Shown: piece by piece, positions 5,284 to 40,820 of the stretch | Layout: the number at the start of each line of letters is the position of its first letter | Numbering within the stretch: the stretch's first letter is position 1 | Sequence record: OP870145.1 | Strand: one strand, 5' to 3' | DNA from: Escherichia phage vB_Eco_F26 | DNA: 64,000 bases | Made by a program: the position numbers and the translations under genes | Notes under the pieces: generated by a model | Told to the model about the DNA's origin: nothing | Database searches by the model: none | The model's input: only the letters and a program-made list of their open reading frames with translations

Positions 5284-5296
5284 AATATTTCCTCAG

Positions 5297-5304
5297 TATA
5301 AATA
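5297..5304 (+). promoter_or_regulatory. late promoter TATAAATA upstream of uvsW
   Basis: exact TATAAATA about 30 nt upstream of uvsW ATG. Confidence 0.5.
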
Positions 5305-5333
5305 TAGATATATTTATTACATGGTATTTAGAC

Positions 5334-6845
5334 ATGACTGACATTAAAGTACATTTTTATGATTTTAGTCACGTGAGAATTGATTGTGAAGAAAGCACAT
5401 TTCATGAACTCCGTGATTTCTTTAGCTTTGAAGCTGATGGGTATCGTTTTAACCCTCGCTTCAGATATGGCAACTGGGATGGACGAATCCGTCTTTTAGA
5501 TTATAATCGTCTTCTTCCATTCGGTTTAGTCGGGCAAATTAAAAAGTTCTGTGATAACTTTGGCTATAAAGCCTGGATTGACCCACAGATTAACGAAAAA
5601 GAAGAATTATCAAGAAAAGATTTTGATGAATGGCTTTCTAAATTAGAAATCTATTCAGGAAATAAAAGAATTGAACCACACTGGTATCAAAAAGATGCAG
5701 TGTTCGAAGGATTAGTTAATCGTCGTAGAATTCTTAATCTTCCAACATCTGCAGGTAAATCGTTAATTCAAGCTCTGCTTGCTCGGTATTATTTGGAAAA
5801 TTATGAAGGTAAAATTCTTATCATTGTTCCAACAACTGCTCTAACAACTCAGATGGCTGATGACTTCGTTGACTATCGTTTATTCAGTCATGCAATGATA
5901 AAGAAAATTGGTGGCGGAGCATCAAAAGATGATAAATATAAAAATGATGCACCAGTCGTTGTTGGTACATGGCAAACTGTAGTAAAACAACCGAAAGAAT
6001 GGTTCTCACAGTTTGGAATGATGATGAATGATGAATGCCATCTTGCTACAGGAAAAAGTATTTCATCTATCATATCAGGTTTAAATAACTGCATGTTTAA
6101 ATTTGGTCTATCAGGTTCATTACGTGACGGCAAAGCCAATATCATGCAGTATGTTGGAATGTTTGGTGAAATATTTAAGCCAGTAACGACCTCTAAATTA
6201 ATGGAAGATGGACAAGTAACTGAGTTAAAAATTAATAGTATTTTTCTTCGCTATCCCGATGAGTTCACTACTAAATTAAAGGGAAAAACTTACCAAGAAG
6301 AAATAAAAATTATTACTGGGCTCAGTAAAAGAAATAAATGGATCGCTAAATTAGCTATTAAGCTTGCACAAAAAGATGAAAACGCTTTTGTCATGTTTAA
6401 ACATGTATCGCATGGTAAAGCTATTTTCGATTTAATTAAAAATGAATACGATAAAGTTTATTACGTATCAGGGGAAGTTGATACCGAAACCCGCAACGTA
6501 ATGAAAACCTTAGCTGAAAATGGTAAAGGAATAATTATAGTAGCTAGTTATGGTGTATTTTCTACTGGTATTTCAGTTAAAAATCTGCATCATGTTGTTT
6601 TAGCGCACGGCGTTAAATCAAAAATCATTGTATTACAAACAATCGGTCGTGTATTACGTAAGCATGGTTCTAAGACAATCGCAACTGTCTGGGACCTCAT
6701 AGATGACGCGGGCGTGGTTTCTAAATCAAAAACATCTTCTAAAAAATACTCGCATTTAAACTATCTTTTAAAACATGGACTTGATCGTATTCAGCGTTAT
6801 GCTGATGAAAAGTTTAATTATGTGATGAAAGAGGTTAAACTTTGA
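5334..6845 (+). CDS. uvsW: UvsW SF2 DNA helicase
   Basis: 503 aa; Walker A LPTSAGKS, DECH box; matches T4 UvsW length. Confidence 0.9.
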   Translation: MTDIKVHFYDFSHVRIDCEESTFHELRDFFSFEADGYRFNPRFRYGNWDGRIRLLDYNRLLPFGLVGQIKKFCDNFGYKAWIDPQINEKEELSRKDFDEWLSKLEIYSGNKRIEPHWYQKDAVFEGLVNRRRILNLPTSAGKSLIQALLARYYLENYEGKILIIVPTTALTTQMADDFVDYRLFSHAMIKKIGGGASKDDKYKNDAPVVVGTWQTVVKQPKEWFSQFGMMMNDECHLATGKSISSIISGLNNCMFKFGLSGSLRDGKANIMQYVGMFGEIFKPVTTSKLMEDGQVTELKINSIFLRYPDEFTTKLKGKTYQEEIKIITGLSKRNKWIAKLAIKLAQKDENAFVMFKHVSHGKAIFDLIKNEYDKVYYVSGEVDTETRNVMKTLAENGKGIIIVASYGVFSTGISVKNLHHVVLAHGVKSKIIVLQTIGRVLRKHGSKTIATVWDLIDDAGVVSKSKTSSKKYSHLNYLLKHGLDRIQRYADEKFNYVMKEVKL

Positions 6846-7534
6846 ATTATAAATTAATATATGATAATTTAATTAATAGAGCCCAGAATCGGGCTCGCCT
6901 TAATGGATACACTGAAACACATCATATAATTCCTAGATGTATGGGTGGTACAAATGATAAGTGTAATTTAGTAGAACTAACGGCTGAAGAACATTTTATA
7001 GCCCATAAACTTTTAGCTAAAATTCATCCAAATCATTACGGTATAATTAAAGCCGTTATATGTATGGGAATGAACTCAAAGACTCATGAAAGACACGTTA
7101 ATAAATCTTACGCGTGGGAACGTCGTAAAATGGCAGAACTTCAATCCGGCGAAGGTAATCCATTTTACGGAAAACACCATACGGAAGAACATAAACAATA
7201 TATGTCAAAACTCATGAAAAGTCGTCCAATTACATGGGGAAATAAAATTAGTAAAACTAAAAGAATGAACCCAACGAAATGGACTGAAGAAGCTAAAAGA
7301 TTACATTCAATCAATCAATCGGGTAAAAATAACGGCATGTATGGAAGGAAACATTCCGCTAAATCTATTCAGAAAATTAAAGATAACATGCCAGATAATT
7401 CAGGAGCTAATAACCCAGCTGCTAAACCTATAGAAGTAAATGGTGTTAAATATAAATGTATGAAAGATGCTTCTAAAGCTACTGGATTATCAATGTACAA
7501 ACTAAGAATACTTAGAAAAACAGTTAATTTATAA
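6842..7534 (+). CDS. Mob-type HNH homing endonuclease, free-standing, TTG start overlapping uvsW stop
   Basis: HHIIPRCMGG...NLVELTAEEHFIAH HNH motif, NUMOD3-like GxxNPFYGKHHTEEHK repeats; SD AAAGAGG 8 nt upstream of TTG; paralog of ORF 34989..35699. Confidence 0.8.
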   Translation: MNYKLIYDNLINRAQNRARLNGYTETHHIIPRCMGGTNDKCNLVELTAEEHFIAHKLLAKIHPNHYGIIKAVICMGMNSKTHERHVNKSYAWERRKMAELQSGEGNPFYGKHHTEEHKQYMSKLMKSRPITWGNKISKTKRMNPTKWTEEAKRLHSINQSGKNNGMYGRKHSAKSIQKIKDNMPDNSGANNPAAKPIEVNGVKYKCMKDASKATGLSMYKLRILRKTVNL

Positions 7535-7559: not shown

Positions 7560-7790
7560 ATGTTACTAGGATTTAAACAATTTCTTTATGAAGCTTCTAT
7601 TGATGAATTTATGGGTAAAATTGCCTCTTGTCAAACATTAGAAGGTTTAGAAGAACTTGAAGCTTATTATAAGAAAAGAGTCAAAGAAACTGAATTAAAA
7701 GATACTGATGACATCTCTGTAAGAGATGCTTTGGCAGGAAAAAGAGCTGAATTAGAAGATTCAGACGATGAAGTAGAAGAAAGCTTTTAA
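7560..7790 (+). CDS. uvsW.1: UvsW.1
   Basis: 76 aa from ATG at 7560 (tracker ORF extends upstream to a TTG); acidic C-terminus; T4 synteny. Confidence 0.7.
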   Translation: MLLGFKQFLYEASIDEFMGKIASCQTLEGLEELEAYYKKRVKETELKDTDDISVRDALAGKRAELEDSDDEVEESF

Positions 7791-14090: not shown

Positions 14091-14098
14091 GGAATAAT

Positions 14099-16182: not shown

Positions 16183-16188
16183 ATATTT

Positions 16189-16479
16189 TTATTTACGGAA
16201 TGAAATGAAAGCAGAAACTGAAGCAACTAAACTGTCTTCAATATAAACTTCAATTTTTACCGGAGCTTCTGACTCAAATTTACCTGTTACTACACCCTGA
16301 AAAATACTTTCAGTCTGTTCTGGCTTTGAAAAATTTTCAGAAGGAAAAATTCCAAACTTTTTATCTGTTCCGAAAATTTTGATAAATTCATCATAAACTG
16401 CTTCATTAAAAGCATTATCAGCAGGAATAACGCCTTCAACTACAAGTTCTTGACCTAAAAAGCGTAAAGAAGATTTCAT
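16189..16479 (-). CDS. hypothetical protein downstream of alt
   Basis: 96 aa ORF; start preceded by promoter/stem-loop cassette. Confidence 0.5.
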   Translation of the reverse strand: MKSSLRFLGQELVVEGVIPADNAFNEAVYDEFIKIFGTDKKFGIFPSENFSKPEQTESIFQGVVTGKFESEAPVKIEVYIEDSLVASVSAFISFRK

Positions 16480-16484
16480 TTTGT

Positions 16485-16545
16485 GTTCCTCATGTTATGT
16501 CAGTAAGAATACTATAACACAACATGAGGGACTTGTAAACTACAT
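16485..16545 (-). repeat. PeSL-like cassette copy A: early promoter (GTTTAC -35) plus stem-loop sequestering SD
   Basis: 50/53 nt identical to copy at 28957..29012; 9-bp stem cctcatgtt/aacatgagg contains GAGG SD of downstream ORF. Confidence 0.6.
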
Positions 16546-16898
16546 TTTGAACTTTTTAGTACGCGTAATAGGCATGCGTCGATTTTATACTGTTTCATTG
16601 TTTGAAGAGCAGTATCAAAAACAGCATTAATGACACCAATTGGATTTCCACCCAAGTTTTTAAGCTTAACTAATGATAGTTTCTCATTAACACCTATCAT
16701 TACGATATGCATCATTTTGTCGCCTGGTTTAACGTTTTATCTGTATCACCGCCAGAGGTGTATGTACAAAATCTAAATCCAGGAAGCACGCTTTCTTCGC
16801 CGGTTTGAATAGCAAAAATTTGTGGTATTTTATGCTTAGGATTTAAGTTAACAACCGGCGCCGAAGCGCCGTCAAATAATTATGTAATAAGTTCCATG
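16545..16898 (-). pseudogene. decayed tandem duplicate of the alt 5' end (N-terminal ~130 codons)
   Basis: about 70% nt identity to alt 18540..18997; ATGGAACTTATTACATAA gives stop at codon 6; alt segment replaced by ggcgccgaagcgcc hairpin; residual 67-aa ORF 16512..16715 aligns to Alt residues ~63-125. Confidence 0.65.
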
Positions 16899-16900
16899 AT

Positions 16901-18997
16901 TTATCCTTGAACGAACTTGTAAGGCATGTTTGCAATATCTATGCAAGACGCAATAATTCCAAGAGATGATTCTACTTTCTGTTTAACATTTGATGAAACA
17001 AATGATGCAAAGTCAACTCTGTCTTCTATTTCAATATCACCTGTCATTGCAACTACTTCGCCAGTTTCCATTAGACGGTCACCGTCATAAATTACTGATT
17101 CGGTGAGTTCTTCCGTAGTCATAACTTCAGCTTGAATGAGTTTTGTATTATTAGATGTTGTTCCGTCATTATTAGAAGCATCAGTTATTTTATTAACTTT
17201 GACCATCAATCCGCGCGGTAGAATAACTTCAGCTTCTGTTGCTATTCCGAGACTTCCTGGATATACAACATTAACTTTATGAGCTCCATCAATTGCCCAT
17301 CCTATTTGAACTTTAACGTATTCAGGATTTTCTTTATACGCTCTTATTTCGTTTGGATTAATAGTTATTCCTTCTTCATTTTTATCAACTGTTAATTCAT
17401 TGCGAGCTTCTGGTTCTAAAAGACCGATACCAGCATGTGTAATTCCAAAACGTCCAAAAATGATAGGAGTTAAAGAAGTAGATACAAAATTTCTGAAATA
17501 GAACACTTTATTTTTAACTAGTGCTTCGTATATAGGAGCAGTCATGCTTTGAGCACGATAAACTGTAATGCCTTCTGGTATACGGTCACCATTTTCAAAA
17601 GCTGAATCTAAATTATTTATCGCAGATTCAATTTCTTTTTCACTCATTACATCATATCGTTCTGGATTGTAGCGGCCTAAAAGAAGATTATTGATGTCAG
17701 TATATCCTGATCCACAATATTCTCTAATGCCGCGCTTTTGTGATGGAGTATATTTAGAACCATCACGGGCAATAGTAATATCAATCATTGGACCTGCACC
17801 AATTCCAGAAAAACTATAAATCATTCGTTTGAGGAATTTAGTTTTTGCTGCGTTCCAGGAATTTTTAGTTATTTCTTCCCAGACTTCATCTGGCTGTCCT
17901 TTACGGGTTTTATTATGTTTATCAAGCCAATTATCTTTATATTCTTCAAAGAATTTATTAACAGCTGCTGCGTATTTCTCTAAACATTTTATTGAAGTAG
18001 TTGGTTCATTTTTAATCGCATTAAGAATTACATCTTTAATTTTTTCAGAAACTTCATCAACCTCACTTTTTGAAAAGAATTTATAGTCATAGTGAAGTTC
18101 ATTTGCAGTTCCTTCAGCAATAATTTTTGCTGCCTTAGTTTTAGAAGCTAATGAATTAATTCCAAGCTTCATTTCTTCTGCTTCGGGAATTAAAGGAGCG
18201 GTAGCAGGTTTATTAAAATTAGCTGCGGTAGATTCATACTTCTGGAATAATTCACTTTCAAATCTAGAAGATTCTAATGATTGACTTTGCGCAATTGCTC
18301 TACGGGAAATTTTAACTTTAACAATAACAGCTTGGTCAGAACGTTTATCATTTTCTTGTGCAATAGATGCTGCAATTGCCTCATTTTTAGTTACTTGAGC
18401 TCCGGTATCTTTATTGATATAAACATCGCCGACCTTCGATTCAACTTTAGTAAAGAGCTCGGTACTAATTTCCGGAACTCCTGGAATGTCTTCTAGTGAT
18501 ACATTTTTGCGATGTATAAGAATATATGCATACTTTTTATCATAATCCCAGAGTTCCTTAAGAAGGACGTATCTGCCGCCTGAACGACTACGGATAAGTC
18601 TATCAGCAATAACTTGAATTTGTCGAGCTTGACCAGCAGTTTTAGACTTAAGAATACGAAGCATACAGGCATCAATTTTATACTGACGCATTGTTTGCAT
18701 TGCAACAGTAAAAACTGAATTGATGTAATTAATTGGGCTTGGACCGAGACCTTTTAATTTAGCAATTGAACCTTTAGCAGTTAGTGTAAAAGGAACAATG
18801 TGCATCATTTTATCGCCCATCTTTAAATCACGGTTAGTATCACCTCCAGATGTATAGGTACATAAACGAAAGCCTGGTTGTTCAATTGCGTCATCAACAT
18901 GAACTGAAAAAATTTGCGGTATTTTCTTCTTTGGATTTAAGTTTGTAATCGGAAGAGTAGTATCTTCGTCAAATAATTCTGTAATTAGTTCCATCAT
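16901..18997 (-). CDS. alt: Alt ADP-ribosyltransferase (packaged head protein)
   Basis: 698 aa; T4 position between gene 54 and gene 30. Confidence 0.85.
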   Translation of the reverse strand: MMELITELFDEDTTLPITNLNPKKKIPQIFSVHVDDAIEQPGFRLCTYTSGGDTNRDLKMGDKMMHIVPFTLTAKGSIAKLKGLGPSPINYINSVFTVAMQTMRQYKIDACMLRILKSKTAGQARQIQVIADRLIRSRSGGRYVLLKELWDYDKKYAYILIHRKNVSLEDIPGVPEISTELFTKVESKVGDVYINKDTGAQVTKNEAIAASIAQENDKRSDQAVIVKVKISRRAIAQSQSLESSRFESELFQKYESTAANFNKPATAPLIPEAEEMKLGINSLASKTKAAKIIAEGTANELHYDYKFFSKSEVDEVSEKIKDVILNAIKNEPTTSIKCLEKYAAAVNKFFEEYKDNWLDKHNKTRKGQPDEVWEEITKNSWNAAKTKFLKRMIYSFSGIGAGPMIDITIARDGSKYTPSQKRGIREYCGSGYTDINNLLLGRYNPERYDVMSEKEIESAINNLDSAFENGDRIPEGITVYRAQSMTAPIYEALVKNKVFYFRNFVSTSLTPIIFGRFGITHAGIGLLEPEARNELTVDKNEEGITINPNEIRAYKENPEYVKVQIGWAIDGAHKVNVVYPGSLGIATEAEVILPRGLMVKVNKITDASNNDGTTSNNTKLIQAEVMTTEELTESVIYDGDRLMETGEVVAMTGDIEIEDRVDFASFVSSNVKQKVESSLGIIASCIDIANMPYKFVQG

Positions 18998-19030
18998 ATC
19001 CTCTCTAGTGTTTATTCTATTTATAAAATT

Positions 19031-19048
19031 AAAGGCCCGAAGGCCTTT
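19031..19048 (-). terminator. GC hairpin upstream of alt
   Basis: aaaggcc-cgaa-ggccttt. Confidence 0.4.
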
Positions 19049-19235
19049 AGTAATCTAGTGGTAAGAGAGTACGATATATTTCAAACTTTGGTCCTTTTTC
19101 ATAGGCATCAAATGCTTCTGTGAATTTATTATAAGCGTATGCATCTACAAATTCGAGAATGACTTGTGATACAGAAGTAGAAACATCTCCACCTTCTTTT
19201 TGAGCAATGACAATTGTTTCTAAGTAAGCTTTCAT
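19047..19235 (-). CDS. hypothetical protein
   Basis: 62 aa ORF, start overlaps gene 30 stop. Confidence 0.4.
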   Translation of the reverse strand: MKAYLETIVIAQKEGGDVSTSVSQVILEFVDAYAYNKFTEAFDAYEKGPKFEIYRTLLPLDY

Positions 19236-20695
19236 AGACCAGTTACCTCATGAAAATCACCAAATACATCCTCGAATGTATTAGCTTTAGTTTTATCTTC
19301 GCGTAAACGAATCGCAATCGGAAGAAATAATTTAACGTAATCAGTGCGGCCATCAGATTTTAACCAACCATTGCATTCGCACTCTAGAATTTTTCCAATA
19401 TAATAATTTTGGTTTTCCATAATGCGAGTACGGTCAAGTTCATGTGATTTTACGCCGGCTTTATCTTTTAAGCCTGAACCAGCATTTACCTTAATTTTTC
19501 CACACTCTGACTCAAGAATAAATCCACCTGCTTTAGTAGGGTCTTTACGGTGAGGATAAATTCCTACAATTTTTAAATCAACATCAATTACTTCTTTAAA
19601 TTTATAGAGATTTTTTGAACGAGCATTTTCCCATAATCCATCGATATTTTTGAGAATAATACCTTCAAGACCTTGGTCAATATACTTTTTATAAATTACC
19701 TTAGCTTCATCTAGGTTATTTACTACCTGGTTTTCAATTAAAATTACTTTATCATAGCCTGATGTCATTTGTTCTAGTTTAGAAAAACGTACATCATATT
19801 TCAAACGAAATGCAGGAAGACCGTATATTTCTACCAACGGGACATAATCCCAAACCTGAAACTTCATGCATTGAGCTTCTTTTTCAGAAATGGTTCCCTT
19901 TAAAGATTTATTAGCGATTCCATTAGAAGTAGTACGTGATTCAGCTACTTCTGTGAAGTCTTTAACTTTACTGTTTTCAGGATGAGCATCAAAAAGAAAA
20001 TCTAGGCCTTCTGACTCCTTTTTAACTTGCTCATGGTATACCAATTCGCCATCAATTAACACGCCTTCTGGATGAATCTGGCGGGCTTCAGCGGTCATTT
20101 TGATTAATTCTTCCTTAAGAAGATCTAATCCTAGATATTCATTACCGGCTCGTGATAAAAGACGAACATCATCTAATTCATCACCTCTGACTTCGGCAAA
20201 GCACCGAGCCCCATCAGCTTTTAACTGGGCAAAGGCTGGAAATTTGATATTCTTATTAATGCCTTTTTCATCATAAGAACTTGCAAGCATTTGAGGTTGT
20301 TCAGGAATTAAACCTGGCCAAACTTTGTTTGCAATAGATACTGAAGCACCACATTCAAGGTCTCGCATCATCACTCGACGCAAAACTTCAACATCATCTT
20401 TTTTACCATCGGTGATATATCCAGTTAATTCCTCAATTGCTGCATTTCCAGTCAATTTCCGAGTAGCTAATGTGAATTCAATGAAGTCAAGCATATCGGT
20501 AAGAGTCAACATTCCAAAACTCTGGGTAGCAATACCAGGTTTAGGCCATTTCTTGATATAATACTGCAACCCACGAGAATAAGTCAGACGATATACTCGT
20601 TTAAGCAATTCATTATCTTTATTCTTTTCAAGAATTGCTTGCTTCTGCTTAGTTGAACCAATAGATGCTATTTCGTTCAGAATTTTAAGAATCAT
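19232..20695 (-). CDS. 30: ATP-dependent DNA ligase gp30
   Basis: 487 aa; adenylation motif KADGAR. Confidence 0.9.
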   Translation of the reverse strand: MILKILNEIASIGSTKQKQAILEKNKDNELLKRVYRLTYSRGLQYYIKKWPKPGIATQSFGMLTLTDMLDFIEFTLATRKLTGNAAIEELTGYITDGKKDDVEVLRRVMMRDLECGASVSIANKVWPGLIPEQPQMLASSYDEKGINKNIKFPAFAQLKADGARCFAEVRGDELDDVRLLSRAGNEYLGLDLLKEELIKMTAEARQIHPEGVLIDGELVYHEQVKKESEGLDFLFDAHPENSKVKDFTEVAESRTTSNGIANKSLKGTISEKEAQCMKFQVWDYVPLVEIYGLPAFRLKYDVRFSKLEQMTSGYDKVILIENQVVNNLDEAKVIYKKYIDQGLEGIILKNIDGLWENARSKNLYKFKEVIDVDLKIVGIYPHRKDPTKAGGFILESECGKIKVNAGSGLKDKAGVKSHELDRTRIMENQNYYIGKILECECNGWLKSDGRTDYVKLFLPIAIRLREDKTKANTFEDVFGDFHEVTGL

Positions 20696-29015: not shown

Positions 29016-30603
<1,588 letters not shown>

Positions 30604-30630
30604 AATAAAATGGGCCTTGCGGCCCACTCC

Positions 30631-31133
30631 TTAAAAGTATTTTTTAAAACTCATCATAACTTTATCATCAACATCATTATCAATCTGTGCAACAAGGTAA
30701 GATGACAGTTCTACTTCTTGTGGCGCGGATTGAACATTATCAGAATTAAGATATTCACGAATCCAAGGATATGGGTGTTTAACCGGAGCATCGGTAATTG
30801 GGCATGGAAGACCACACTGTTTCATACGAGATACAGTTAAGTAATCAATAAAGCTCCACATGCTATTTGTATTTAATCCAGGAACATCGCCATCTTTAAA
30901 TAAATGAACTGCCCAATCTTTTTCTTGGCGGTTAACTTCCATGAAAATATCAACTGCTTCTTGTTCACACTCTTGAGCAATTTTAACCCATTCATCACCA
31001 TCAGTACCGGATTGAAGCTGACGAATAATATATTGAGTGCCTTTAAGGTGAAGCTGCTCATCACGTGCAATGAACTTCATAATCTTGGCATTACCTTCCA
31101 TGATTTCCATGTTCTTATGGAAGTTAAAGGTAC
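30631..31133 (-). CDS. nrdB: ribonucleotide reductase small subunit NrdB, exon 2
   Basis: Encodes ...TFNFHKNMEIMEGNAKIM... to C-terminus; joins exon 1 across a group I intron. Confidence 0.75.
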
Positions 31134-31725
31134 CGTTATGTTCGATTGAGCTCGCTAATTCTCAACCCGTTCTCTTATGAACTGCTACATATTACTATGC
31201 AGACCAGACTATATCACAATCCCAGAGGGATTCTCCCCATTTCGAGTCGCTTGACCCTACGTCCGAAGACTAGTCGTTGAACCTTGCTTTGCAATTGTCG
31301 CCGTGCCATCGTTTATATGTTGATGGTGATAAATCTTTCTTATCACAATATGGACAATTCAATTGAATTCTATTTGGATTTAATTTACATCTGTCATTAT
31401 GTTTTAGATAAAATCCAGGACCTTTACCAATGTGACCACAGAAATCACATGTGATTTCTTTTTGTGCAGGATGGGTCCCGTTCTTAACCATTTCTAATGT
31501 TTTTGCTGATGTTCTTTTCTTATGGTCTTCCATCAGAATCTTTAGGTAGGTCCGTTAGCATCTATCCAAATTTTTCTATAGTTCAATTGTGCATCCTCTT
31601 AAAAGTATAATCATATTATACTAATTAAAGGTGCAAGCAAAACCTTGGCTGCTAGTTTTCCTATAAAGGACTTTCTAGCAATTAAAGGAGTTTTCGATAA
31701 ACGTTACCGTTTAAAGGCGCATTTT
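31134..31725 (-). mobile_element. group I self-splicing intron in nrdB (boundaries +/- a few nt)
   Basis: Exon 1 ends GCGU with U.G pair to intron GCGC (P1); intron ends in G; predicted junction restores conserved FYVSFA-C-TFNF. Confidence 0.65.
31270..31533 (-). pseudogene. truncated I-TevIII-like intron ORF remnant
   Basis: 87 aa with Cys-rich zinc-finger-like motifs but no HNH catalytic region. Confidence 0.55.
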
Positions 31726-32401
31726 ACGCAAAAGATACATAAAAACGAATAGCTTCTAAGGCATTAATAACGTGCAAACAGAGGTAAAGAGATTTCATTA
31801 AAGCACGTTTAGCTTCGGCTTCTTGTTTAATAGCTCGGTTTAAACGAAAGTCGGCATCAGGAGATTCTTTAGCTAGTTCTACAAATTCTTTAGCATTTTC
31901 CCATTCACGGGTTTTAGTCAGAACATCATCATAATAACGACCGATAGATTCAGCACGTTTCATAATAGCTTCATCTAATACAATCTCATCAAATACCTTT
32001 GACGGATCAGTATAAAGATTTCGCATGATATGAGTATATGACCGACTGTGAATAGTTTCACTAAAAGTCCATGTAGCAACCCATGTATCAAGGCTTGGGT
32101 CTGAAAGCAATGGCATAAGTACAGCAGACGGCGCACGACCTTGAATACTATCAAGTAATGATTGATACTTCAGATTATTAGTAAAAATATTTTGTTGATA
32201 CTGAGGAAGCTTATTAAACTGTGCAGCATCCATCATTAAGTTAACTTCTTCGGGACGCCAGAAAAACGAGAGCGAACGTTCAATAAGTTCTTCAAATACT
32301 CGATGTCGTTGAATATCATAACGCGCAATTCCAAGACCAGACCCAAAAAACATAGGTTCTTTTAAAACATCGACCTGTTTAGTATTAAAAACTGTACTCA
32401 T
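31726..32401 (-). CDS. nrdB: ribonucleotide reductase small subunit NrdB, exon 1
   Basis: Ferritin-like diiron residues; ends ...NALEAIRFYVSFA immediately before intron. Confidence 0.8.
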
Positions 32402-33993
32402 TATTTTGTCCTGTAAACTAAATTTCCACAGTCCCAGATTCTTCTAAGACCATTTGCATAACAATTTTCTACTTCAGTTATTGTATCATCATAATTTTTA
32501 AGCTTGTTTTTAAGCTTATGTTTCATATAGCTTGAGCGGTGAAATACCTCTCCTTTATCGACGTACCAATAACATGGCTCAGAGATATGACTAAATTCCA
32601 TGACAGAGTCATAAACATTTGATAATGTACTGCACCATCTTCGATTGCCATAAGATAGACAATTAATTCCTTTTAATAATTTTGAGGCTCCTCCTACAAC
32701 ACAAATCCCTAATTTTGAACACATCCTTAAAAGTTCATCACCTGAGCTATATCTAGATTTACCGATAGAAATAATTTGAACTAACTCATTATTGTAATAA
32801 AGTCCTTTATACGTATGAGCTCCTGAGCAAAATCCTTGAAGATGATTCTTATTAATAAATTCTTTTGCCTCATCCTTATTAACAAAACGCGCTTTGCATT
32901 TTCGGGCTGGTATTCTTTCTGATAATCCTAATTTATGCTTTATAATGGATTTCCAGATCTCTCTTTTTGTATCATCAATCCATTCATTTTCGAAGATGTG
33001 AAGTAATTGAATTCCTTGTGCTTCACACATCTCTGTCTTCATCAAATGATAAGTTTCTTTAATTTTATCTGTTTCCTTTGACCCGCTAGAATGCCAATAA
33101 ATTCCATCGTATTCTATAGCCAATTTTTTCTCAGGAATGTAAATATCTAATTCATACGGAGGAATAATTTTTCTAGTTTCTACGCAATCAAATCCTAGAT
33201 CTAAAATGAATTGCTCTATAGAACTTTGAGTATAATGAACGTCAATTAGTCCTTTGGATGAAAGAGCTCTATAAGCCGTCATCCGAGAACAATTTGCTAA
33301 TTGTTGTAGTTCTTCTATAGAAATTTTGTAATTGATTTTATCTAGTATATCATGATTAATATGACCGTTATTTTTAATAGATTTTCCTATAGATGAATAT
33401 AACGATGCCTTATATTCTTCAGTCCAATTTAATTTAGTCTTCTTAGATTTTTCGCGAGATTTTCGAGAATTCAGAATATCAACTGATTTACCGTTTTCTA
33501 TAACTTTTCTCGCTTCTTTCACACTTTCTAATTGTGAATTATGCGTTACCCCATATCGTTTAATTAAAGTTTTTCTATTTTTATTTCTTGAAATTTTTTG
33601 ATGAGTTGTTCCATATTTTTCTAAAGAATTTTTGCGTTGAAGTTCAGACAAATATTTTTTATATTTTTCTTTTCCGCCAAAATTTGTATCACGGCTTTGA
33701 ATTCTCTTATCCGCGAAAAATATCCCTGAGCAGGATTTACTACATGTTGCTGGAAATACACGTTTCTTTGCTGTTTTCAGAGAAATGAAATTTCCACAAA
33801 CTGCACATTTTAGATCGTTAATGTCAATGCCTTCCATAATTTGGAACACATTGAGCTTAAAATCTATTCCATCAGTTAGAAGAGCTTTATCTTCTTCTGT
33901 TAGTCTAGATTTAAGTTTTTCTTCTCCAAATGGAAGAAACTTTCCGTTTTTGTATATATTATCAAACATAGCGTTATTCTTAGTTAACCACAT
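32401..33993 (-). CDS. composite nuclease-like protein: Zn-ribbon-like, KYGxTH repeats, HTH, Vsr-like (PD-(D/E)xK) nuclease domain and C-terminal Cys-rich domain
   Basis: 530 aa; YELDIYIPEKKLAIEYDGIYWHS...QGIQLLHIFENEW matches DUF559/Vsr-like core; stop overlaps nrdB start (TAATG). Confidence 0.65.
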   Translation of the reverse strand: MWLTKNNAMFDNIYKNGKFLPFGEEKLKSRLTEEDKALLTDGIDFKLNVFQIMEGIDINDLKCAVCGNFISLKTAKKRVFPATCSKSCSGIFFADKRIQSRDTNFGGKEKYKKYLSELQRKNSLEKYGTTHQKISRNKNRKTLIKRYGVTHNSQLESVKEARKVIENGKSVDILNSRKSREKSKKTKLNWTEEYKASLYSSIGKSIKNNGHINHDILDKINYKISIEELQQLANCSRMTAYRALSSKGLIDVHYTQSSIEQFILDLGFDCVETRKIIPPYELDIYIPEKKLAIEYDGIYWHSSGSKETDKIKETYHLMKTEMCEAQGIQLLHIFENEWIDDTKREIWKSIIKHKLGLSERIPARKCKARFVNKDEAKEFINKNHLQGFCSGAHTYKGLYYNNELVQIISIGKSRYSSGDELLRMCSKLGICVVGGASKLLKGINCLSYGNRRWCSTLSNVYDSVMEFSHISEPCYWYVDKGEVFHRSSYMKHKLKNKLKNYDDTITEVENCYANGLRRIWDCGNLVYRTK

Positions 33994-34009
33994 CCTTGTG
34001 GTAATTATA

Positions 34010-34999
34010 TCATAATTTACAGGATGAACAATCTTCAGCTTTTGGAGTTTCTATTTCATAATCATCAGTGCCAGAACCATCGCGGGTATTATGATAATAG
34101 AAATTTTTTCCGCCAAAATACCAAAAATACAAAAGGTCATCAATCATTATTGACATTGGAACCTTTCCTTTTGGAAAAATCTGCGGGTCATAGTATGTAT
34201 TCGCTGAAGCTGATTGACATACCCATTTCAGCATAATAGCTACCTGCGTAAGATAAGGTTTATTACCTTTCTTAGCTAATTTCCATGTATAATCATAGAG
34301 GTCTATGTTATGCTCAATATTGGGCACGACTTGATTAAAGGAGCCCTCTTTTGATTCTTTAACAGAGACTGGTCCACGTGGAGGCTCGATACCGTTTGTA
34401 CTGTTAGAAACTTGGGAAGATGACTCACATGGCATAAGTGCTGATAATGTGCTATTACGGATGCCAAAGAGCTTAAGGTCTTCCCGCAGCGCCGACCAGT
34501 CACAAACGTATTTTGGAGCTGCGATTTGGTCAATCTTTTTATTGTACCAGTCGATAGGTAATTCGCCTCGAGACCAACGAGTGTCTGAATAATATTCGCA
34601 AGGTCCTTTTTCTTTGGCGAGCTTAATGGATGCTTTAATGAGTCCATACTGTAATCTCTCAAATAGTTCATGTGTTAAATCGTTAGCATCTTCATAAGAA
34701 GCAAAGTTGCTTGCCAGCCAAGCTGCATAGTTAGTAACACCTACACCGAGGTTACGACGCTTTTTAGCTTTTTCTGCTTCAGGAACTGGATATCCTTGAT
34801 AATCCAAAAGATTATCAAGAGCGCGAACTTGAACTTCTGCCAATTCATTAATTTTATCTTGGTCTTGCCAATCGAAGTTATCCAGTACGAAGGCAGAGAG
34901 AGTACAAAGCCCCACTTCTCCCTTGTTTTCAATAACTTTTATTGTAGTATACTCATCATCTTCGTAAAATTCATCTACAAATTCATAATCAATATTCAT
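34010..34999 (-). CDS. nrdA: ribonucleotide reductase large subunit, C-terminal fragment (NrdA-b)
   Basis: 329 aa; acidic 23-aa head then ENKGEVGLCTLSAF... NSTLSALMPCESSSQ ... YYHNTRDG. Confidence 0.85.
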   Translation of the reverse strand: MNIDYEFVDEFYEDDEYTTIKVIENKGEVGLCTLSAFVLDNFDWQDQDKINELAEVQVRALDNLLDYQGYPVPEAEKAKKRRNLGVGVTNYAAWLASNFASYEDANDLTHELFERLQYGLIKASIKLAKEKGPCEYYSDTRWSRGELPIDWYNKKIDQIAAPKYVCDWSALREDLKLFGIRNSTLSALMPCESSSQVSNSTNGIEPPRGPVSVKESKEGSFNQVVPNIEHNIDLYDYTWKLAKKGNKPYLTQVAIMLKWVCQSASANTYYDPQIFPKGKVPMSIMIDDLLYFWYFGGKNFYYHNTRDGSGTDDYEIETPKAEDCSSCKL

Positions 35000-35831
35000 T
35001 TAATTCTTCTACCTTTTTTCTAGTAATTCCTAAAGCTTTAGATGCTCGATGTATTGATTGATATTCTATACCGTTTATTTTTACAGCAATTAAGTTATGG
35101 GGTTTTAATCCCTTTGGATGAGGTTTACTGACGAAAACTAAATTATCAAGCTCTGAAATCTTATCCAATTTCTTACACTTAAATCCTTTGTGATGCGCCC
35201 GTTTACCTTTACAAACGGCTGACATTGCAGATGAATTTAAATTATGCTCTTTACAAAATTCGTTAAGACCTCGATGAATTTCCTCATGACCATCCGGAAA
35301 TGTAAACACCCAAGATGTTTGAAGTCGAGATTTAACTTCTGGAGACATAGGAATACCTTTGTTCCAAGCTGGTTTGCCTTTATTATTTTCAGATACAGAA
35401 ATAGCCAATTTTCTTCTAAGCCACCCATGGCGTTTATTGGTGTTCTTTCGTTCAATATTATCTTCAGAATAAACACACATCATATTAGCGGCAAATATCA
35501 ATTTATGATTATCTGGATATATCTTTACTAATAATTGATGAGCTATGTAATGCTCTTCTGGCGTCAAATCTACCAGGTTTTCCTTTGTATCAGAACCACC
35601 AATACACAGAGGTATAATATGGTGTGATTCGGTATAGCAATCTAATTTTCTGTTCTTAGCTTTAGAAATAAGGTTATTGTAAATTTTAGAATAATCCATA
35701 ACTTTTCCTCTTGTTATGGATTATTTATTAACGGTCTGTGTACTTTATTTGCTTTGAATTATACCGCCAGGATTAGCTTCATAAAACTTAGCTACATCCG
35801 ACTTCTTAATTTTGATTAAACGGGTTTGTTG
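34930..35831 (-). mobile_element. about 0.9 kb insertion splitting nrdA (HNH gene plus new stop/start tails)
   Basis: NrdA homology ends at ...IPTNDVNS (N-part) and resumes at ENKGEVGLC (C-part); intervening DNA holds HEG. Confidence 0.55.
34989..35699 (-). CDS. Mob-type HNH homing endonuclease inserted within nrdA
   Basis: 236 aa; HHIIPLCIGGSDTKENLVDLTPEEHYIAH; paralog of ORF 6842..7534; stop overlaps NrdA-b start by 11 nt. Confidence 0.8.
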   Translation of the reverse strand: MDYSKIYNNLISKAKNRKLDCYTESHHIIPLCIGGSDTKENLVDLTPEEHYIAHQLLVKIYPDNHKLIFAANMMCVYSEDNIERKNTNKRHGWLRRKLAISVSENNKGKPAWNKGIPMSPEVKSRLQTSWVFTFPDGHEEIHRGLNEFCKEHNLNSSAMSAVCKGKRAHHKGFKCKKLDKISELDNLVFVSKPHPKGLKPHNLIAVKINGIEYQSIHRASKALGITRKKVEELNEY

Positions 35832-37178
35832 GCTATTCACATCATTTGTTGGAATAGCAATTTCACAGCACAAGTTACTCTGACGAATAGGTGCCTTTTC
35901 ACGAATAAACGGAGTATAGTTATTCGTATTATCAATGAACTGCACATAAATCCTTGCTGTTCCTGATCGTTCAGTCATGAGCAATTCAAACAGTTCACGG
36001 GCTTTAATACGCTTTTTACGAATATTAGGGTCTTTTTCTGCGGCTTCGTATAATTCACGGAAACGGTCTTGGTCTTTAAAATAAGAATAATAAAGTTCGC
36101 CACCCATTTCATGCGGACTGAACAAAGTAATGTAATCGTTCTTTCCGAATCGTTCCATCATCAAATCATTCAGCTGAACACCATAATCCATGTGACGAAT
36201 GCGGTTTTCTTCTACGCCTTTGTTATTTTTCAAAACGAGAAGATTTTCAACTTCCAAATGCCAAATAGGATAATAAGCAGTAGCAGCGCCGCCACGAATT
36301 CCACCCTGTGAACATGATTTAACAGCAGTCTGAAAATGTTTCCAAAAAGGAATAACACCAGTATGGCGTACTTCACCCATGCCAATCTTAGAACCTTCGG
36401 CACGAATCATACCAACGTTAATACCAATTCCAGCGCGTTTAGAGATATATTCAACAATTGAAGCGGAAGCCTTATTGATAGACTTTAATGAATCACCTGC
36501 CTCAATAACAACACATGAACTAAACTGTCGAGTCGGAGTACGACAACCAGCCATAATAGGAGTTGGCAATGAAATCTGTCGAGTAGATACTGCTTCATAA
36601 AAACGAATAACATGTTTTAGTCTATCAACAGGTTCATCTTGATGCAATGCCATTCCAATAGTCATAAATGCAAACTGTGGGGTTTCATAAATTTGACCGG
36701 TGGTTTTATCTTTAACTAGATATTTTTCTTTTAATTGCATCGCCCCGGAATAAGTAAATTCCATATCCCGTTCGTGCTTAATTTTTGATTCTAAAAATGT
36801 AATTTCTTCTGCTGAATATTTTGACAATAATTCAGGGTCATATTTACCTTCATTTACACAGTAAGAAATATGGTCAATAAATGAACGCGGTTCATACTGC
36901 CCATAAACATGCTTACGAAGAGCGAACATTAAACAGCGTGCAGCTACATATTGATAATCAGGTTCTTCAACCGAAATAGAATTCGCAGCAGCCTTAATGA
37001 CAATAGTCTGAATATCATCAGTTGTCATTCCATCACGGAGATAAGATTTAATATTTTCATATAATTCATAAGGATCTACTGATGTTCCCTCAGCTGCCCA
37101 AGATAAAACTTTAATAATTTTTTGTGGGTCAAAGCTCTGAGAAACACCACTACTTTTGATAACATTAATTAATTGCAT
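35745..37178 (-). CDS. nrdA: ribonucleotide reductase large subunit, N-terminal fragment (NrdA-a)
   Basis: 477 aa; ATP-cone, CRTPTRQFSSC, ...RQSNLCCEIAIPTNDVNS then basic 28-aa tail. Confidence 0.85.
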   Translation of the reverse strand: MQLINVIKSSGVSQSFDPQKIIKVLSWAAEGTSVDPYELYENIKSYLRDGMTTDDIQTIVIKAAANSISVEEPDYQYVAARCLMFALRKHVYGQYEPRSFIDHISYCVNEGKYDPELLSKYSAEEITFLESKIKHERDMEFTYSGAMQLKEKYLVKDKTTGQIYETPQFAFMTIGMALHQDEPVDRLKHVIRFYEAVSTRQISLPTPIMAGCRTPTRQFSSCVVIEAGDSLKSINKASASIVEYISKRAGIGINVGMIRAEGSKIGMGEVRHTGVIPFWKHFQTAVKSCSQGGIRGGAATAYYPIWHLEVENLLVLKNNKGVEENRIRHMDYGVQLNDLMMERFGKNDYITLFSPHEMGGELYYSYFKDQDRFRELYEAAEKDPNIRKKRIKARELFELLMTERSGTARIYVQFIDNTNNYTPFIREKAPIRQSNLCCEIAIPTNDVNSQQTRLIKIKKSDVAKFYEANPGGIIQSK

Positions 37179-37495
37179 AAGTCCTCAACTTGAAAATCGT
37201 CTTTAAACAATCGGTTAACTATATGAGCTATTATATCACCATGACACGGCTTTGGTTTACATGTGCATCCTAGCCTCATTCCACGTAAAGGCTCTAAATG
37301 TGCTTTAGTTATTTCTCCAGATTTAATTCGACGTATAAAATCTTTTTTGAATAATTCAATGGCAGCCTCCCGGCTGCCAGCATCTTTACCGACGTAATTT
37401 CCCCAAAATGTACCGCGGTGAATATTAACATCAAAGTCGGATTTATATTTATTCACTACCCGGCATAGACGGCCCACGCTGGAATAATTCTTCAT
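37169..37495 (-). CDS. DUF4326-like small protein
   Basis: 108 aa; motif [15 protein letters not shown]. Confidence 0.45.
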
Positions 37496-37712
37496 ATTGT
37501 TTTTCCGTTAAAACAGTAATATCGTAGTAACAGTCAGAAGAAGTTTTAACTGTGGAAATTTTATTATCAAAATACTCACGAGTCATTTTATGAGTATAGT
37601 ATTTTTTACCATAAATGGTAATAGGCTGTTCTGGTCCTGGAACTTCTAACTCACTTGGGTTAGGAAGTGTAAAAAGAACAACGCCAGAAGTATCTTTAAA
37701 TCGTAAAATCAT
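37449..37712 (-). CDS. hypothetical protein
   Basis: 87 aa ORF. Confidence 0.4.
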
Positions 37713-38020
37713 ATTGCCATTTTCCCTTTAATTGCTGGATGCGATTCATAATTTTCAAGGATAAAATCTTTCGGTTTCATGTATTCAGTTAACCAGTAAA
37801 GCTGTGTTTCGGTGTCACAATTTCCAAACTCTATAGGCCAATCAATTTTAAGTTCACACAGTTCTTTAGGCTCACGACGTAAAATTTCTTTACATTGCTC
37901 AGTATGATTCATATAGATGTGAGTATTACCACCAGAAAATATCAAATCTCCTGGGATAAGATTACACATCTTAGCTACAATATGAACTAGTGCAGCATAT
38001 GATGCAATATTAAACGGTAG
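37709..38020 (-). CDS. td: thymidylate synthase, exon 2
   Basis: Begins [14 protein letters not shown]...; joins exon 1 to give conserved [14 protein letters not shown]. Confidence 0.85.
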
Positions 38021-39036
38021 CATTATGTTCAGATAAGGTCGTTAATCTTACCCCGGAATTATATCCAGCTACATGTCACCATGCAGAGCAGACTATATCT
38101 CCAACTTGTTAAAGCAAGTTGTCTATCGTTTCGAGTCACTTGACCCTACTCCCCAAAGGGATAGTCGTTAGGCATTTATGTAGAACCAATTCCATTTATC
38201 AGATTTTACACGATAAGTAACTAATCCAGACGAAATTTTAAAATGTCTAGCTGCATCTGCTGCACAATCAAAAATAACCCCATCACATGAAATCTTTTTA
38301 ATATTACTAGGCTTTTTACCTTTCATCTTTTCTGATATTTTAGATTTAGTTATGTCTGAATGCTTATGATTAAAGAATGAATTATTTTCACCTGAACGAT
38401 TTCTGCATTTACTGCAAGTATAAGCAGAAGTTTGTATGCGAACACCGCACTTACAAAACTTATGGGTTTCTGGATTCCAACGCCCGTTTTTACTTCCGGG
38501 TTTACTGTAAAGAGCTTTCCGACCATCAGGTCCAAGTTTAAGCATCTTAGCTTTAACAGTTTCAGAACGTTTCTTAATAATTTCTTCTTTTAATGGATGC
38601 GTAGAACATGTATCACCAAACGTTGCATCAGCAATATTGTATCCATTAATTTTAGAATTAAGCTCTTTAATCCAAAAATTTTCTCGTTCAATAATCAAAT
38701 CTTTCTCATATGGAATTTCTTCCAAAATAGAACATTCAAACACATTACCATGTTTGTTAAAAGACCTCTGAAGTTTTATAGAAGAATGGCATCCTTTTTC
38801 TAAATCTTTAAAATGCCTCTTCCATCTCTTTTCAAAATCTTTAGCACTTCCTACATATACTTTATTGTTTAAAGTATTTTTAATCTGATAAATTCCGCTT
38901 TTCATAAATACCTCTTTAAATATAGAAGTATTTATTAAAGGGCAGTCCTACAATTTAGCACGGGATTGTCTACTAGAGAGGTTCCCCGTTTAGATAGATT
39001 ACAAGTATAAGTCACCTTATACTCAGGCCTCAATTA
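38021..39036 (-). mobile_element. td group I self-splicing intron (1016 nt)
   Basis: 5' end UAAUUGAGGCCUGAGUAUAAGGUGACUUAUACUUG... after exon CUUGGGU; 3' end ...AACAUAAUG; contains I-TevI ORF. Confidence 0.85.
38168..38905 (-). CDS. I-TevI GIY-YIG homing endonuclease
   Basis: 245 aa; MKSGIYQIKN...KVYVGSAKDFEKRWKRH GIY-YIG motif; C-terminal zinc finger and HTH. Confidence 0.9.
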   Translation of the reverse strand: MKSGIYQIKNTLNNKVYVGSAKDFEKRWKRHFKDLEKGCHSSIKLQRSFNKHGNVFECSILEEIPYEKDLIIERENFWIKELNSKINGYNIADATFGDTCSTHPLKEEIIKKRSETVKAKMLKLGPDGRKALYSKPGSKNGRWNPETHKFCKCGVRIQTSAYTCSKCRNRSGENNSFFNHKHSDITKSKISEKMKGKKPSNIKKISCDGVIFDCAADAARHFKISSGLVTYRVKSDKWNWFYINA

Positions 39037-39585
39037 ACCCAAGAAAACATCTACTGATCGTTGATACCACTGAAGGTCAAGGTATCCATTACGAACATTA
39101 AATTGATAAAACATATGACAAGGCGGTAATGCCATCTGCTTGAGTTCAGCTGGATTCCATGCTGAAACGATTTGACGTCGATCAGTTGGTAATTTTTTAA
39201 TACGATCAATAGTTTCAACTAATTGATCCACACCACCGAAATCACGCCATTGTTTACCGTATATAGGACCAAGTTCACCACTATGGTATCCTAAATCTTT
39301 TGCTTGATTTTCGTAATTTTCATCCCAGACTGTTTTGCCTTGGATTAACGAATCATGCTGAATTAATCGTAAATCATTGACATTTGTGCTTCCTGATAAA
39401 AACCATATTAACTCAGAAATGCAAGCTTTCCAGGCGAGCTTTTTAGTTGTTACTGCAGGAAAACCTTTGGTTAAATCCCAACGCAATTTAGTACCGAACA
39501 AAGCAATTGTTCCTGTGCCTGTTCGGTCATCAGTTTCATAGCCATTTTCAAAAATGTCTTTAATTAAATCTTGGTATTGTTTCAT
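39037..39585 (-). CDS. td: thymidylate synthase, exon 1
   Basis: 183 codons ending ...QWYQRSVDVFLG; stop codon lies in intron. Confidence 0.85.
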
Positions 39586-39626
39586 TTAGTACCTTATATA
39601 AATTATAATACATTTTATGAAGCTAA

Positions 39627-39974
39627 TTAATATGGTTTAGCATCAAATTTTCTCTCAATTTCAGGCGTGAAATATAATTCTTTACCGCGTTTGGAAAAAC
39701 GACCAATAATATGATAATTATTCTCATCAAACGTGATATTACCAATATCCATAGCTTTCAACCAAATATCGATATTTCTATCCAGCTTTATGTCAAAATT
39801 CCAATACGGAGAACTATTACCGAAAATACTGCAAGCGGATTCAGTGAAACAACTGCTATAAATCTTATCTTTGGGAACTACTAATTGATAGACGCCTTTA
39901 ATAAACTGAGGACCCTGCCATTTTGGTTGTTTCGCGTCTTTTTCTAATAGAATAGGGTAATAATTAAAATTCAT
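39627..39974 (-). CDS. hypothetical protein between frd and td
   Basis: 115 aa ORF. Confidence 0.45.
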   Translation of the reverse strand: MNFNYYPILLEKDAKQPKWQGPQFIKGVYQLVVPKDKIYSSCFTESACSIFGNSSPYWNFDIKLDRNIDIWLKAMDIGNITFDENNYHIIGRFSKRGKELYFTPEIERKFDAKPY

Positions 39975-39993
39975 ATTTCCGCCACGCGTTATT

Positions 39994-40820
<827 letters not shown>

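Follow-up and report, generated by a model that had tools for sequence, protein, structure and literature searches.

The large-subunit gene of ribonucleotide reductase (RNR), nrdA, is divided in phage Aeh1 by the Mob-type homing endonuclease gene mobE, an arrangement reportedly introduced by Friedrich et al. in 2007 as a 'genes-in-pieces' RNR. The present work concerns a stretch of 64,000 nucleotides from Escherichia phage vB_Eco_F26 (record OP870145.1), the whole of which is called the window below. The window very probably carries two free-standing Mob (HNH) homing-endonuclease cassettes that were gained independently of each other: an Aeh1-type MobE-split element in nrdA (cassette 1) and a second endonuclease gene at the 3′ end of uvsW (cassette 2). 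This grading applies jointly to the whole explanation, comprising both cassettes, the proposed clasp function of short tails on the two NrdA halves, and homing.

In Aeh1 both polypeptides assemble with NrdB into an active enzyme of the composition (NrdA-a/NrdA-b)2-NrdB2 (Crona et al. 2010, PMC3045599). They carry a basic and an acidic tail, for which database searches in 2010 gave no match, and removal of the tails reduced RNR activity about 2000-fold (PMC3045599). The DNA encoding the tails is AT-rich and foreign-looking; its origin was left open in 2010, with foreign DNA or a degenerate intein as the two proposals (PMC3045599). A 2022 preprint mentions MobE inside nrdA with conserved extensions in 'Aeh1 and several others', citing unpublished work (bioRxiv 10.1101/2022.08.31.505936).

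T4 MobE is also a free-standing enzyme encoded in the nrd region (Wilson and Edgell 2009, PMC2790892). It is a nicking HNH enzyme, and its target is in the neighbouring nrdB, not at its own insertion site (PMC2790892). T4 mobA, located in the topoisomerase gene 39/60, is another Mob endonuclease gene inside an enzyme gene that yields two extended, reassembling polypeptides (bioRxiv 10.1101/2022.08.31.505936; PMC3045599); the host gene differs, the extensions are unlike in sequence, and the cassette of the window has no translational bypass element. In the 'fractured' nrdA genes of Dassa et al. (2009, PMC2677866), which contain a split intein, two open reading frames (ORFs) divided near the active site flank an endonuclease gene, as in the window, and electrostatic complementarity of the halves was proposed there too. 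In the fractured genes the two halves bear the N- and C-fragments of an intein (PF14890), and the break immediately precedes the catalytic Cys, whereas the break in the window is about 40 residues further on and has no intein motifs.

Split-intein nrdA was seen in P0005 (Yersinia phage vB_YenM_TG1), P0006, P0013, P0022, P0061 and others, among T4-like and marine phages. In their C-fragments the intein C-piece ends in ...VHN and is directly followed by the catalytic Cys (C[AL]EI...). Judged from the sequences, nrdA is split close to its active site in at least two unrelated ways among related phages.

Anatomy of the split nrdA and the two endonucleases

The source phage is a Tequatrovirus (T4-like coliphage), whose nrdA and uvsW regions are 95-98% identical to hundreds of Escherichia/Shigella/Yersinia T-even records. 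The nrdA locus contains the following features, listed in the direction of transcription.

34907..35830, minus strand: MobE-split cassette in nrdA, 924 bp, replacing about 20 nt of T4 nrdA (codons PDAEI)
35745..37178, minus strand: nrdA-N (= nrdA-a), 477 aa; Pfam Ribonuc_red_lgC positions 1-221 of 523
35748..35831, minus strand: tail at the C-terminus of NrdA-N, 28 aa, QQTRLIKIKKSDVAKFYEANPGGIIQSK, isoelectric point (pI) 10.0, net charge +4; not in T4 NrdA
35690..35725, minus strand: 13-bp RNA hairpin whose loop contains the Shine-Dalgarno GAGG and whose 3′ arm contains the endonuclease AUG
34989..35699, minus strand: HNH homing endonuclease gene, orthologue of Aeh1 mobE, 236 aa, ATG start; HNH block, NUMOD3-like motif, I-HmuI-type helix-turn-helix, I-TevI-type helix-turn-helix tail
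34913..34999, minus strand: head at the N-terminus of NrdA-C, 29 aa, MNIDYEFVDEFYEDDEYTTIKVIENKGEV, pI 4.1, net charge -8; overlap of 11 nt between its start and the endonuclease 3′ end
34010..34999, minus strand: nrdA-C (= nrdA-b), 329 aa; Pfam Ribonuc_red_lgC positions 219-523 of 523

In a blastn comparison with T4 nrdA the flanks of the cassette were 98.1% identical over 1367 nt and 94.5% identical over 911 nt. NrdA-N comprises the ATP-cone, the all-alpha domain and the first half of the RNR barrel with the thiyl-radical cysteine (NLCCEI); NrdA-C comprises the second half of the barrel, Cys32 (= E. coli Cys462) and the C-terminal CxxC. The break falls between NLCCEI (Cys439 equivalent, NrdA-N) and GLCTLSA (Cys462 equivalent, NrdA-C), where T4 has PDAEI. 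The cassette runs from the basic tail and its stop codon through a 45-nt spacer and the endonuclease gene to the 11-nt overlap with the next start and the acidic head. Outside the tails, the two halves have 100% protein identity to an uninterrupted T4-type NrdA, which lacks the insertion loop described in the next section. The acidic head is also present on the split NrdA-b proteins P0002, P0004, P0007 and P0012. The arrangement as such is already known, about 34 Tequatrovirus records being annotated with two nrdA pieces around a homing endonuclease.

The likeness to Aeh1 (L011) extends to nearly every element. The insertion point, between the Cys439 and Cys462 equivalents, and the gene order are the same; the genes nrdA-A / mobE / nrdA-B encode 473, 237 and 323 aa in Aeh1 and 477, 236 and 329 aa in the window; the gap and the endonuclease/nrdA-b overlap measure 46 and 14 nt in Aeh1, 45 and 11 nt in the window. 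Aeh1 MobE is orthologous to the endonuclease of the window (44.5% identity over 227 aa, E 7e-56). The fused tails of the two phages aligned with a score of 84, as compared with 27.6 ± 5.2 for shuffled sequences (0/5000 shuffles reaching the score). Taken singly, the N-tail scored 43 (shuffled 19.7 ± 4.0) and the C-head 65 (shuffled 26.1 ± 5.1), each with 0/5000. The tails, again basic and acidic in Aeh1, have the motifs L[IF]K[IV]KKS[DE]V.KF and E.YED[DE]EYTT in common. The NrdA-N tail was homologous to the tails of Aeh1 and of the metagenomic T4-like contigs L012 and L014 (none of 5000-20000 shuffles). The host genes differ: that of the window is a T4-type nrdA with 95-98% DNA identity to T4, that of Aeh1 an Aeromonas-phage nrdA at another genome position. 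The Aeh1 version was studied biochemically; the version in the window is known from sequence.

A hairpin covers the endonuclease start in both phages. The two hairpins differ in sequence, and that of the window hides the AUG, whereas that of Aeh1 hides the Shine-Dalgarno sequence. The window hairpin has a predicted folding energy of -13.8 kcal/mol (z -5.15, 0/200 shuffles). In L014 this hairpin recurs, two of its pairs having undergone compensatory changes; the hairpins that Aeh1 and L012 have in the same place are different ones. The sequence AATAAATA, which matches the T4 late-promoter box in 7/8 positions, reaches into the 5′ arm, and a late-promoter-like box (xATAAATA, 7/8) occupies this place in the window, L014, Aeh1 and L012. 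In the published account, the Aeh1 hairpin is the means of holding mobE translation off until late. By likeness to Aeh1, the hairpin in the window would occlude the translation start of the endonuclease by hiding its start codon, and translation would be confined to the late phase. Scanning for sigma-70 promoters and terminators around the nrdA cassette gave results at chance level, and exact TATAAATA was not found near either endonuclease gene.

A tblastn search with all T4 Mob proteins detected exactly two Mob-type genes in the window, the one described above and the following.

6842..7534, plus strand: second Mob-family HNH homing endonuclease gene, 230 aa, TTG start, 4-nt overlap with the uvsW stop (TTGA); HNH block, NUMOD3 repeats, I-TevI-type helix-turn-helix tail

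An earlier note on this DNA had presented the two genes as Mob-type HNH paralogues with a common N-terminal block, a common C-terminal tail and a divergent middle. This description was borne out. Both ORFs are present and homologous (33% identity over 240 columns, E = 4e-35, BLASTP). About 100 N-terminal residues are strongly alike, including HHIIP.C.GG....NLV.LT.EEH.IAH. The last ~30 residues gave a local score of 58 (shuffled 20.2 ± 4.0, 0/20000), whereas the ~85 residues in the middle scored 25, the same as shuffled sequences (26.2 ± 4.8). Both proteins matched phrog_655 (~1e-58). Aligned with T4 MobA-E (sequences from NC_000866), both gave N-terminal alignments of 75-130 residues with MobB, MobD and MobE, at 45-57% identity (E 1e-25 to 1e-31), and the N-terminal motif MNY..IY.. 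/ E.HHIIP...GG / NLV.LT..EH..AH was common to both and to T4 MobB-E. The similarity of the pair extends beyond the generic HNH motif and includes the C-terminal tail. Compared with T4 MobE, the HNH domain is alike (45-51% over ~105-130 aa); T4 MobE has only 141 aa, lacks the middle and C-terminal DNA-binding modules, and is encoded between nrdA and nrdB, with nrdB as its target.

The two middles belong to different modules. That of the nrdA endonuclease matched PF22083 (I-HmuI-type helix-turn-helix, 9e-10) and PDB 1u3e (E 0.003); in that of the uvsW endonuclease, NUMOD3 repeats were recognised (7e-14), together with a stretch similar to the DNA-binding part of I-TevI (PDB 1i3j, E 0.006). The C-terminal tail of either enzyme resembled the I-TevI DNA-binding domain (PF20987, E 0.002-0.004, below the Pfam cut-off); the PDB and tail matches are all weak or below curated cut-offs. 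I-HmuI (PDB 1U3E) and I-TevI (PDB 1I3J) are themselves intron-encoded, unlike the enzymes of the window, and I-TevI has a GIY-YIG catalytic domain. The same catalytic module and terminal helix-turn-helix combined with different middle modules, a modular DNA-binding region (NUMOD or helix-turn-helix) being found in both genes, points to the exchange of modules that characterises the family. That T-even phages possess several Mob genes, with their DNA-binding modules shuffled, was already known, and the observation as filed in the earlier note is in this respect routine. Single-sequence AlphaFold2 prediction of the nrdA endonuclease was unusable (mean pLDDT, the predicted local distance difference test, 39.5).

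The interpretation given in the earlier note was half right. It had overlooked what chiefly marks the locus, the position of the first endonuclease gene within the reading frame of nrdA, which is thereby split into two genes. It had also called the two affected genes essential, while in established T4 genetics nrdA and uvsW are non-essential auxiliary genes. As for its statement that the enzymes target these genes, the indications are their location and flank divergence; T4 MobE nicks the neighbouring nrdB (PMC2790892). Finally, it had read the pair as diversification within one genome; each gene was found to be closer to same-locus orthologues in other phages than to its paralogue in the window, and both belong to discrete cassettes missing from T4.

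Three other accounts of these genes were weighed. That the two endonucleases are recent paralogues, duplicated and retargeted within this genome, is very unlikely. They are mutual best matches within the window and have both protein ends in common, but are only 33% identical. Full-length identity of the nrdA endonuclease was 65% to L014, 53% to L012 and 44% to Aeh1 (166 bits to Aeh1 MobE, 112 to the paralogue and 100 to T4 MobE; T4 MobB, MobD and MobE resemble it in the N-terminus only); the uvsW endonuclease was 99% identical to the same-locus gene of T6 and 68% to that of Klebsiella phage Roth77. The N-terminal domains of the pair are at least as close to T4 MobB, MobD or MobE as to one another, and the cassettes are present or absent independently of each other among near-identical Tequatrovirus genomes. 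The two genes would rather be independently acquired elements of one large family with matches in >1000 phage records. The least probable account, and a highly unlikely one, is that the break in nrdA is due to an intron or an intein. The same window does contain group I introns in td and nrdB, and split-intein NrdA fragments exist in other T4-like phages, such as P0005 (Yersinia phage TG1). The Rfam search of 30000-40000 at E ≤ 1, which found the td and nrdB introns, gave no intron-like match in 34900-35850 around the nrdA endonuclease; NrdA-N has its own stop and NrdA-C its own ATG; Pfam detected no intein/Hint domain in either half or in the tails; true split-intein fragments break elsewhere, just before the catalytic Cys; and in the orthologous Aeh1 arrangement two separate polypeptides make up the active enzyme (PMC3045599).

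It is also most improbable that the insertion inactivated nrdA and that the fragments are decaying pseudogenes, tolerated since the host RNR suffices. The phage nrd genes are indeed dispensable in the laboratory, as established in T4 genetics. Nevertheless, about 34 phage records and several metagenomic lineages have both halves as intact ORFs; the body of NrdA shows 100% identity to a T4-type NrdA that is intact; and full activity is on record for the Aeh1 orthologue (PMC3045599). The nonsynonymous and synonymous divergences (pN and pS) between the window and L014 were 0.16 and 0.75 for the tails, 0.16 and 0.70 for the NrdA-C body. These values indicate equally strong purifying selection on tails and body (pN/pS ~0.2).

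Among the candidates rejected were a group I intron-encoded endonuclease, Intron_gpI matches being at 38069-38299 (td) and 31185-31425 (nrdB) and not in the nrdA insert, and an intein or split intein, the break having no splicing blocks, while genuine NrdA fragments carry PF14890 and end in ...HN immediately before C. The uvsW endonuclease gene is placed between two complete ORFs; the Rfam scan covered the nrdA side.

Relatives and probable origin of the NrdA tails

Relatives of the tails were found as a contiguous loop in uninterrupted NrdA proteins. In a tblastn search with the fused tails of the window and short flanks, 63 further records spanned the whole query in one uninterrupted piece; 59 records in this search were Acinetobacter T4-like phages. 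The NrdA of these loop-bearing Acinetobacter phages has about 803 aa, with an insertion of 64-67 residues exactly at the T4 PDAEI site. The fused tails of L012 aligned with the loop in the NrdA of phage Lazarus without gaps over 63 residues (score 90, shuffled 26.7 ± 5.3, 0/20000), and the L012 N-tail alone scored 68 (shuffled 20.3 ± 4.0). Against the loops of P0152 and P0140 the L012 tails scored 78-80 (0/5000 shuffles). The tails of the window and of L012 are plainly homologous (138, shuffled 28.0 ± 5.4).

The contiguous loop was present in 65 Acinetobacter phage records (23 protein clusters). Its identity to the Lazarus loop ranged from ~61% to 100% and dropped along with the identity of the NrdA body. 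Similarly long insertions at the same site were found in Vibrio phage VmeM-32 and Stenotrophomonas phage CM1, with weak similarity (36% by tblastn, E 4e-5 and 4e-4, flanks included). A scan of 185,579 bacterial/archaeal species genomes (one per species) with one short pattern gave no relative of the loop, and Pfam has no family for loop or tails. The fused Aeh1 tails matched only Aeh1 itself in tblastn, and a 44-aa head used as protein query retrieved one fragment and one spurious repetitive protein. A 96-aa query made up of head and flank gave a single candidate, in a search that apparently favours matches about as long as the query.

In the AlphaFold2 model of a loop-bearing NrdA, P0123 (46-sequence alignment; predicted template modelling score, pTM, 0.87), loop residues 444-508 had pLDDT values of 86-93. 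The predicted order of the loop is strand 449-457, helix 458-468, coil, strand 483-485 and strand 495-503, and in the model it runs straight into the barrel strand carrying Cys510. The model superimposed on E. coli NrdA with a template modelling (TM) score of 0.95, normalised by target length. The point at which the cassette splits the sequence corresponds to residues 476/477, located in the coil of the model.

The nearest relatives of the split NrdA bodies are loop-less. For the window, the closest loop-less and loop-bearing bodies were 100% and 63-66% identical, for L014 94-97% and 60-68%, and for L012 73-77% and 64-65%. This pattern indicates that the cassette entered several nrdA lineages, bringing the tails along.

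We regard it as fairly likely that the tails are the two halves of a pre-existing alpha/beta insertion domain of about 64 residues, native to the NrdA of Acinetobacter T4-like phages and their relatives and cut at a surface coil, and that the endonuclease and the half-domains travel as a unit which invaded at least three or four loop-less nrdA lineages. An endonuclease would have entered the coil of the mini-domain in a loop-bearing nrdA, the halves still being able to find each other; the unit of half-domain, endonuclease and half-domain would then have spread into loop-less nrdA by recombination in the conserved flanks. In vB_Eco_F26, separate translation of NrdA-N and NrdA-C would be followed by their non-covalent assembly into an active large RNR subunit, as described for Aeh1. 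The tails may act as a clasp in this assembly, because they appear to be two halves of one small alpha/beta domain.

The opposite direction has to be set against this origin, namely that an endonuclease was lost long ago and left the contiguous 64-67-residue loop behind as a scar, with the tails fused in frame, the tails themselves having come from unrelated foreign DNA, as proposed in 2010. We consider this unlikely, though much less so than the alternatives discussed in the previous section. Homology of tails and loop is symmetric, and the alignment scores carry no direction; the Aeh1 tail DNA was described by Crona et al. as AT-rich and foreign-looking (PMC3045599); and the scan of bacterial and archaeal genomes mentioned above, made with one pattern, gave no loop relative. 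On the other side, the contiguous loop occurs throughout a whole phage subfamily and diverges from the Lazarus loop (~61%-100% identity) in step with the body, as in vertical descent; it is predicted by AlphaFold2 to be a well-packed domain; and similarly long, weakly similar insertions are present at the same site in VmeM-32 and CM1. All split genes are in loop-less backgrounds, which fits import of the tails better than a local origin.

Several observations weigh against the origin of the tails in a native loop, or against other parts of the explanation proposed here. Compared directly, the tails of the window matched the contiguous loop weakly (307/20000 shuffles reached the score); the link between tails and loop rests on L012 as intermediate. 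The C-head alone did not match the loop significantly (2292/20000 shuffles). The symmetry of the homology allows either direction, loop first or loop as a scar. Reassembly of NrdA-N and NrdA-C in this phage would be an extrapolation from Aeh1, whose tails are ~45-55% identical. The late-promoter-like box, finally, is no better than a 7/8 match.

The link between the tails and a contiguous loop may be new, as we found no paper making it. If the native-loop origin is true, it answers where the essential tails came from, the question left open in 2010, and the tails would be neither random foreign DNA nor intein remnants, as the two proposals of that time had it. It would also provide a generally usable way for free-standing endonucleases to settle inside conserved genes with no need of an intron or intein, and a testable model for a phenotypically neutral split of an active site: an autonomous surface mini-domain is broken and its halves re-find each other.

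The uvsW cassette

Cassette 2 is inserted in the last codons of uvsW and leaves both uvsW and uvsW.1 intact. The features around it, besides the endonuclease gene listed above, are as follows.

5334..6845, plus strand: uvsW, 503 aa; Pfam UvsW_N, ResIII, Helicase_C
6839..7516, plus strand: insert relative to T4, ~678 nt, in the last uvsW codons
7535..7546, plus strand: stem-loop GGGCTTCGGCCC, located after the endonuclease stop and before the ribosome-binding site of uvsW.1; also in T4
7560..7790, plus strand: uvsW.1, 76 aa from ATG; Pfam UvsW-1 1.7e-30

UvsW ends in KEVKL* in the window (codons AAA GAG GTT AAA CTT TGA) and in KTVNL* in T4. The recoded end supplies a GAGG Shine-Dalgarno sequence and a TTG start for the endonuclease. 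The last five codons and the stop of the endonuclease gene (KTVNL*) correspond to the original 3′ end of uvsW. The TTG start would be weak and coupled to the uvsW stop.

Counted per 100 nt along uvsW, the mismatches to T4 were 23, 5, 3, 1, 4, 3, 0, 6, 3, 1, 1, 2, 2, 21 and 19. Divergence from T4 is about 20% over the final 200 nt, as compared with 1-3% in the middle of the gene. We read the divergent 3′ end as the mark of a foreign or co-converted flank; it possibly also confers immunity of the target site.

The endonuclease gene located between uvsW and uvsW.1 in T6 and in Yersinia phage PST (named 'mobD' or 'MobE') is the same gene at the same locus, 97-99% identical. We found no experimental characterisation of this T6/PST enzyme in the literature.

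The 5′ end of uvsW is divergent as well, the first 100 nt having 23 differences from T4 against 1-5 per 100 nt further in. In the interval 5284..5440, between inh and uvsW, the window has no segE, which is present in T4 and PST. The divergent 5′ end presumably fits the known SegE target region.

In T4-like phages uvsW.1 is a separate ORF (PMC1524935). The T4 RefSeq record NC_000866 (L006 2669..2700) annotates uvsW as one ORF of 587 aa fused to uvsW.1. The window has a stop codon, the GGGCTTCGGCCC stem-loop and a separate uvsW.1 in this place; together with the published data (PMC1524935) this indicates that NC_000866 differs by small indels exactly there.

Distribution of the cassettes and neighbouring elements

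The nrdA insert was present in 32 of the 826 phage records matching the nrdA region, and the tails were found at ≥ 95% identity in 34 records. The uvsW insert was present in 48/748 records matching the uvsW region, T6 included. At least three phages (RPN226, BYEP01 and UFV-AREG1) have both. The split-nrdA cassette also occurs in the metagenomic T4-like contigs L012-L016, and scanning IMG/VR for the heads gave at least 7 loci. The Aeh1 'genes-in-pieces' RNR is no one-off but an apparently mobile cassette, seen in about 34 records of E. coli/Shigella/Yersinia/Salmonella T4-like phages, and the Tequatrovirus phages with a split nrdA are genetically far more tractable than Aeh1.

The 5′ flank of the nrdA cassette is identical to T4 for >100 nt. 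Downstream, synonymous changes are concentrated within the first ~65 nt, and the mosaic that they form in the first ~40 nt differs between the window and phage FL12, as would be expected of variable end-points of co-conversion. Homing (cleavage and super-Mendelian inheritance) of the cassettes may be indicated by their sporadic presence in near-identical genomes and by their divergent flanks. As T4 MobE suggests by analogy, the enzymes probably nick or cut alleles free of the insert in mixed infection, each close to the site where it is itself inserted, and would then be copied in by repair; in the case of cassette 1, recombinational repair would transfer the entire cassette with its tails to the recipient.

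A more distant split NrdA-b (P0016), with a different, longer acidic head, MITELYEVVEDGELKDDDYVYFEDYIEDDELNEI, was found in L018 (3..1605). The endonuclease upstream of it (203 aa called, the contig end cutting the gene) resembles the enzyme of the window only in the DNA-binding part (37% over 133 aa). L018 may represent the same cassette with a different catalytic module. Between nrdB and rnlA, L014 (6200..7224) and L016 (4121..5145) have a GIY-YIG gene and a further HNH/NUMOD3 gene, which make up another endonuclease cluster of the nrd region.

Within about 9 kb on the minus strand (30631..39585) the window has five mobile elements, the td intron, the MobE-split cassette, a Hef-like gene and the nrdB intron among them. 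The td intron (Rfam Intron_gpI 38069-38299, below the gathering score) has an intact I-TevI gene (38168..38905). The nrdB intron (Rfam 31185-31425) carries a T4-like truncated I-TevIII gene (31273..31548), 98% identical to that of T4. The slot between nrdA and nrdB, the place of mobE in T4, is occupied by an ORF of 530 aa (32401..33993, minus strand). Its product matched phrog_3339 'homing endonuclease' (6e-152) and, weakly, the REase_MTES_1575 fold; we take it to be probably a Hef-like endonuclease, of the kind reportedly described by Sandegren et al. 2005. The 3′ end of nrdA adjoining this gene is strongly divergent from T4.

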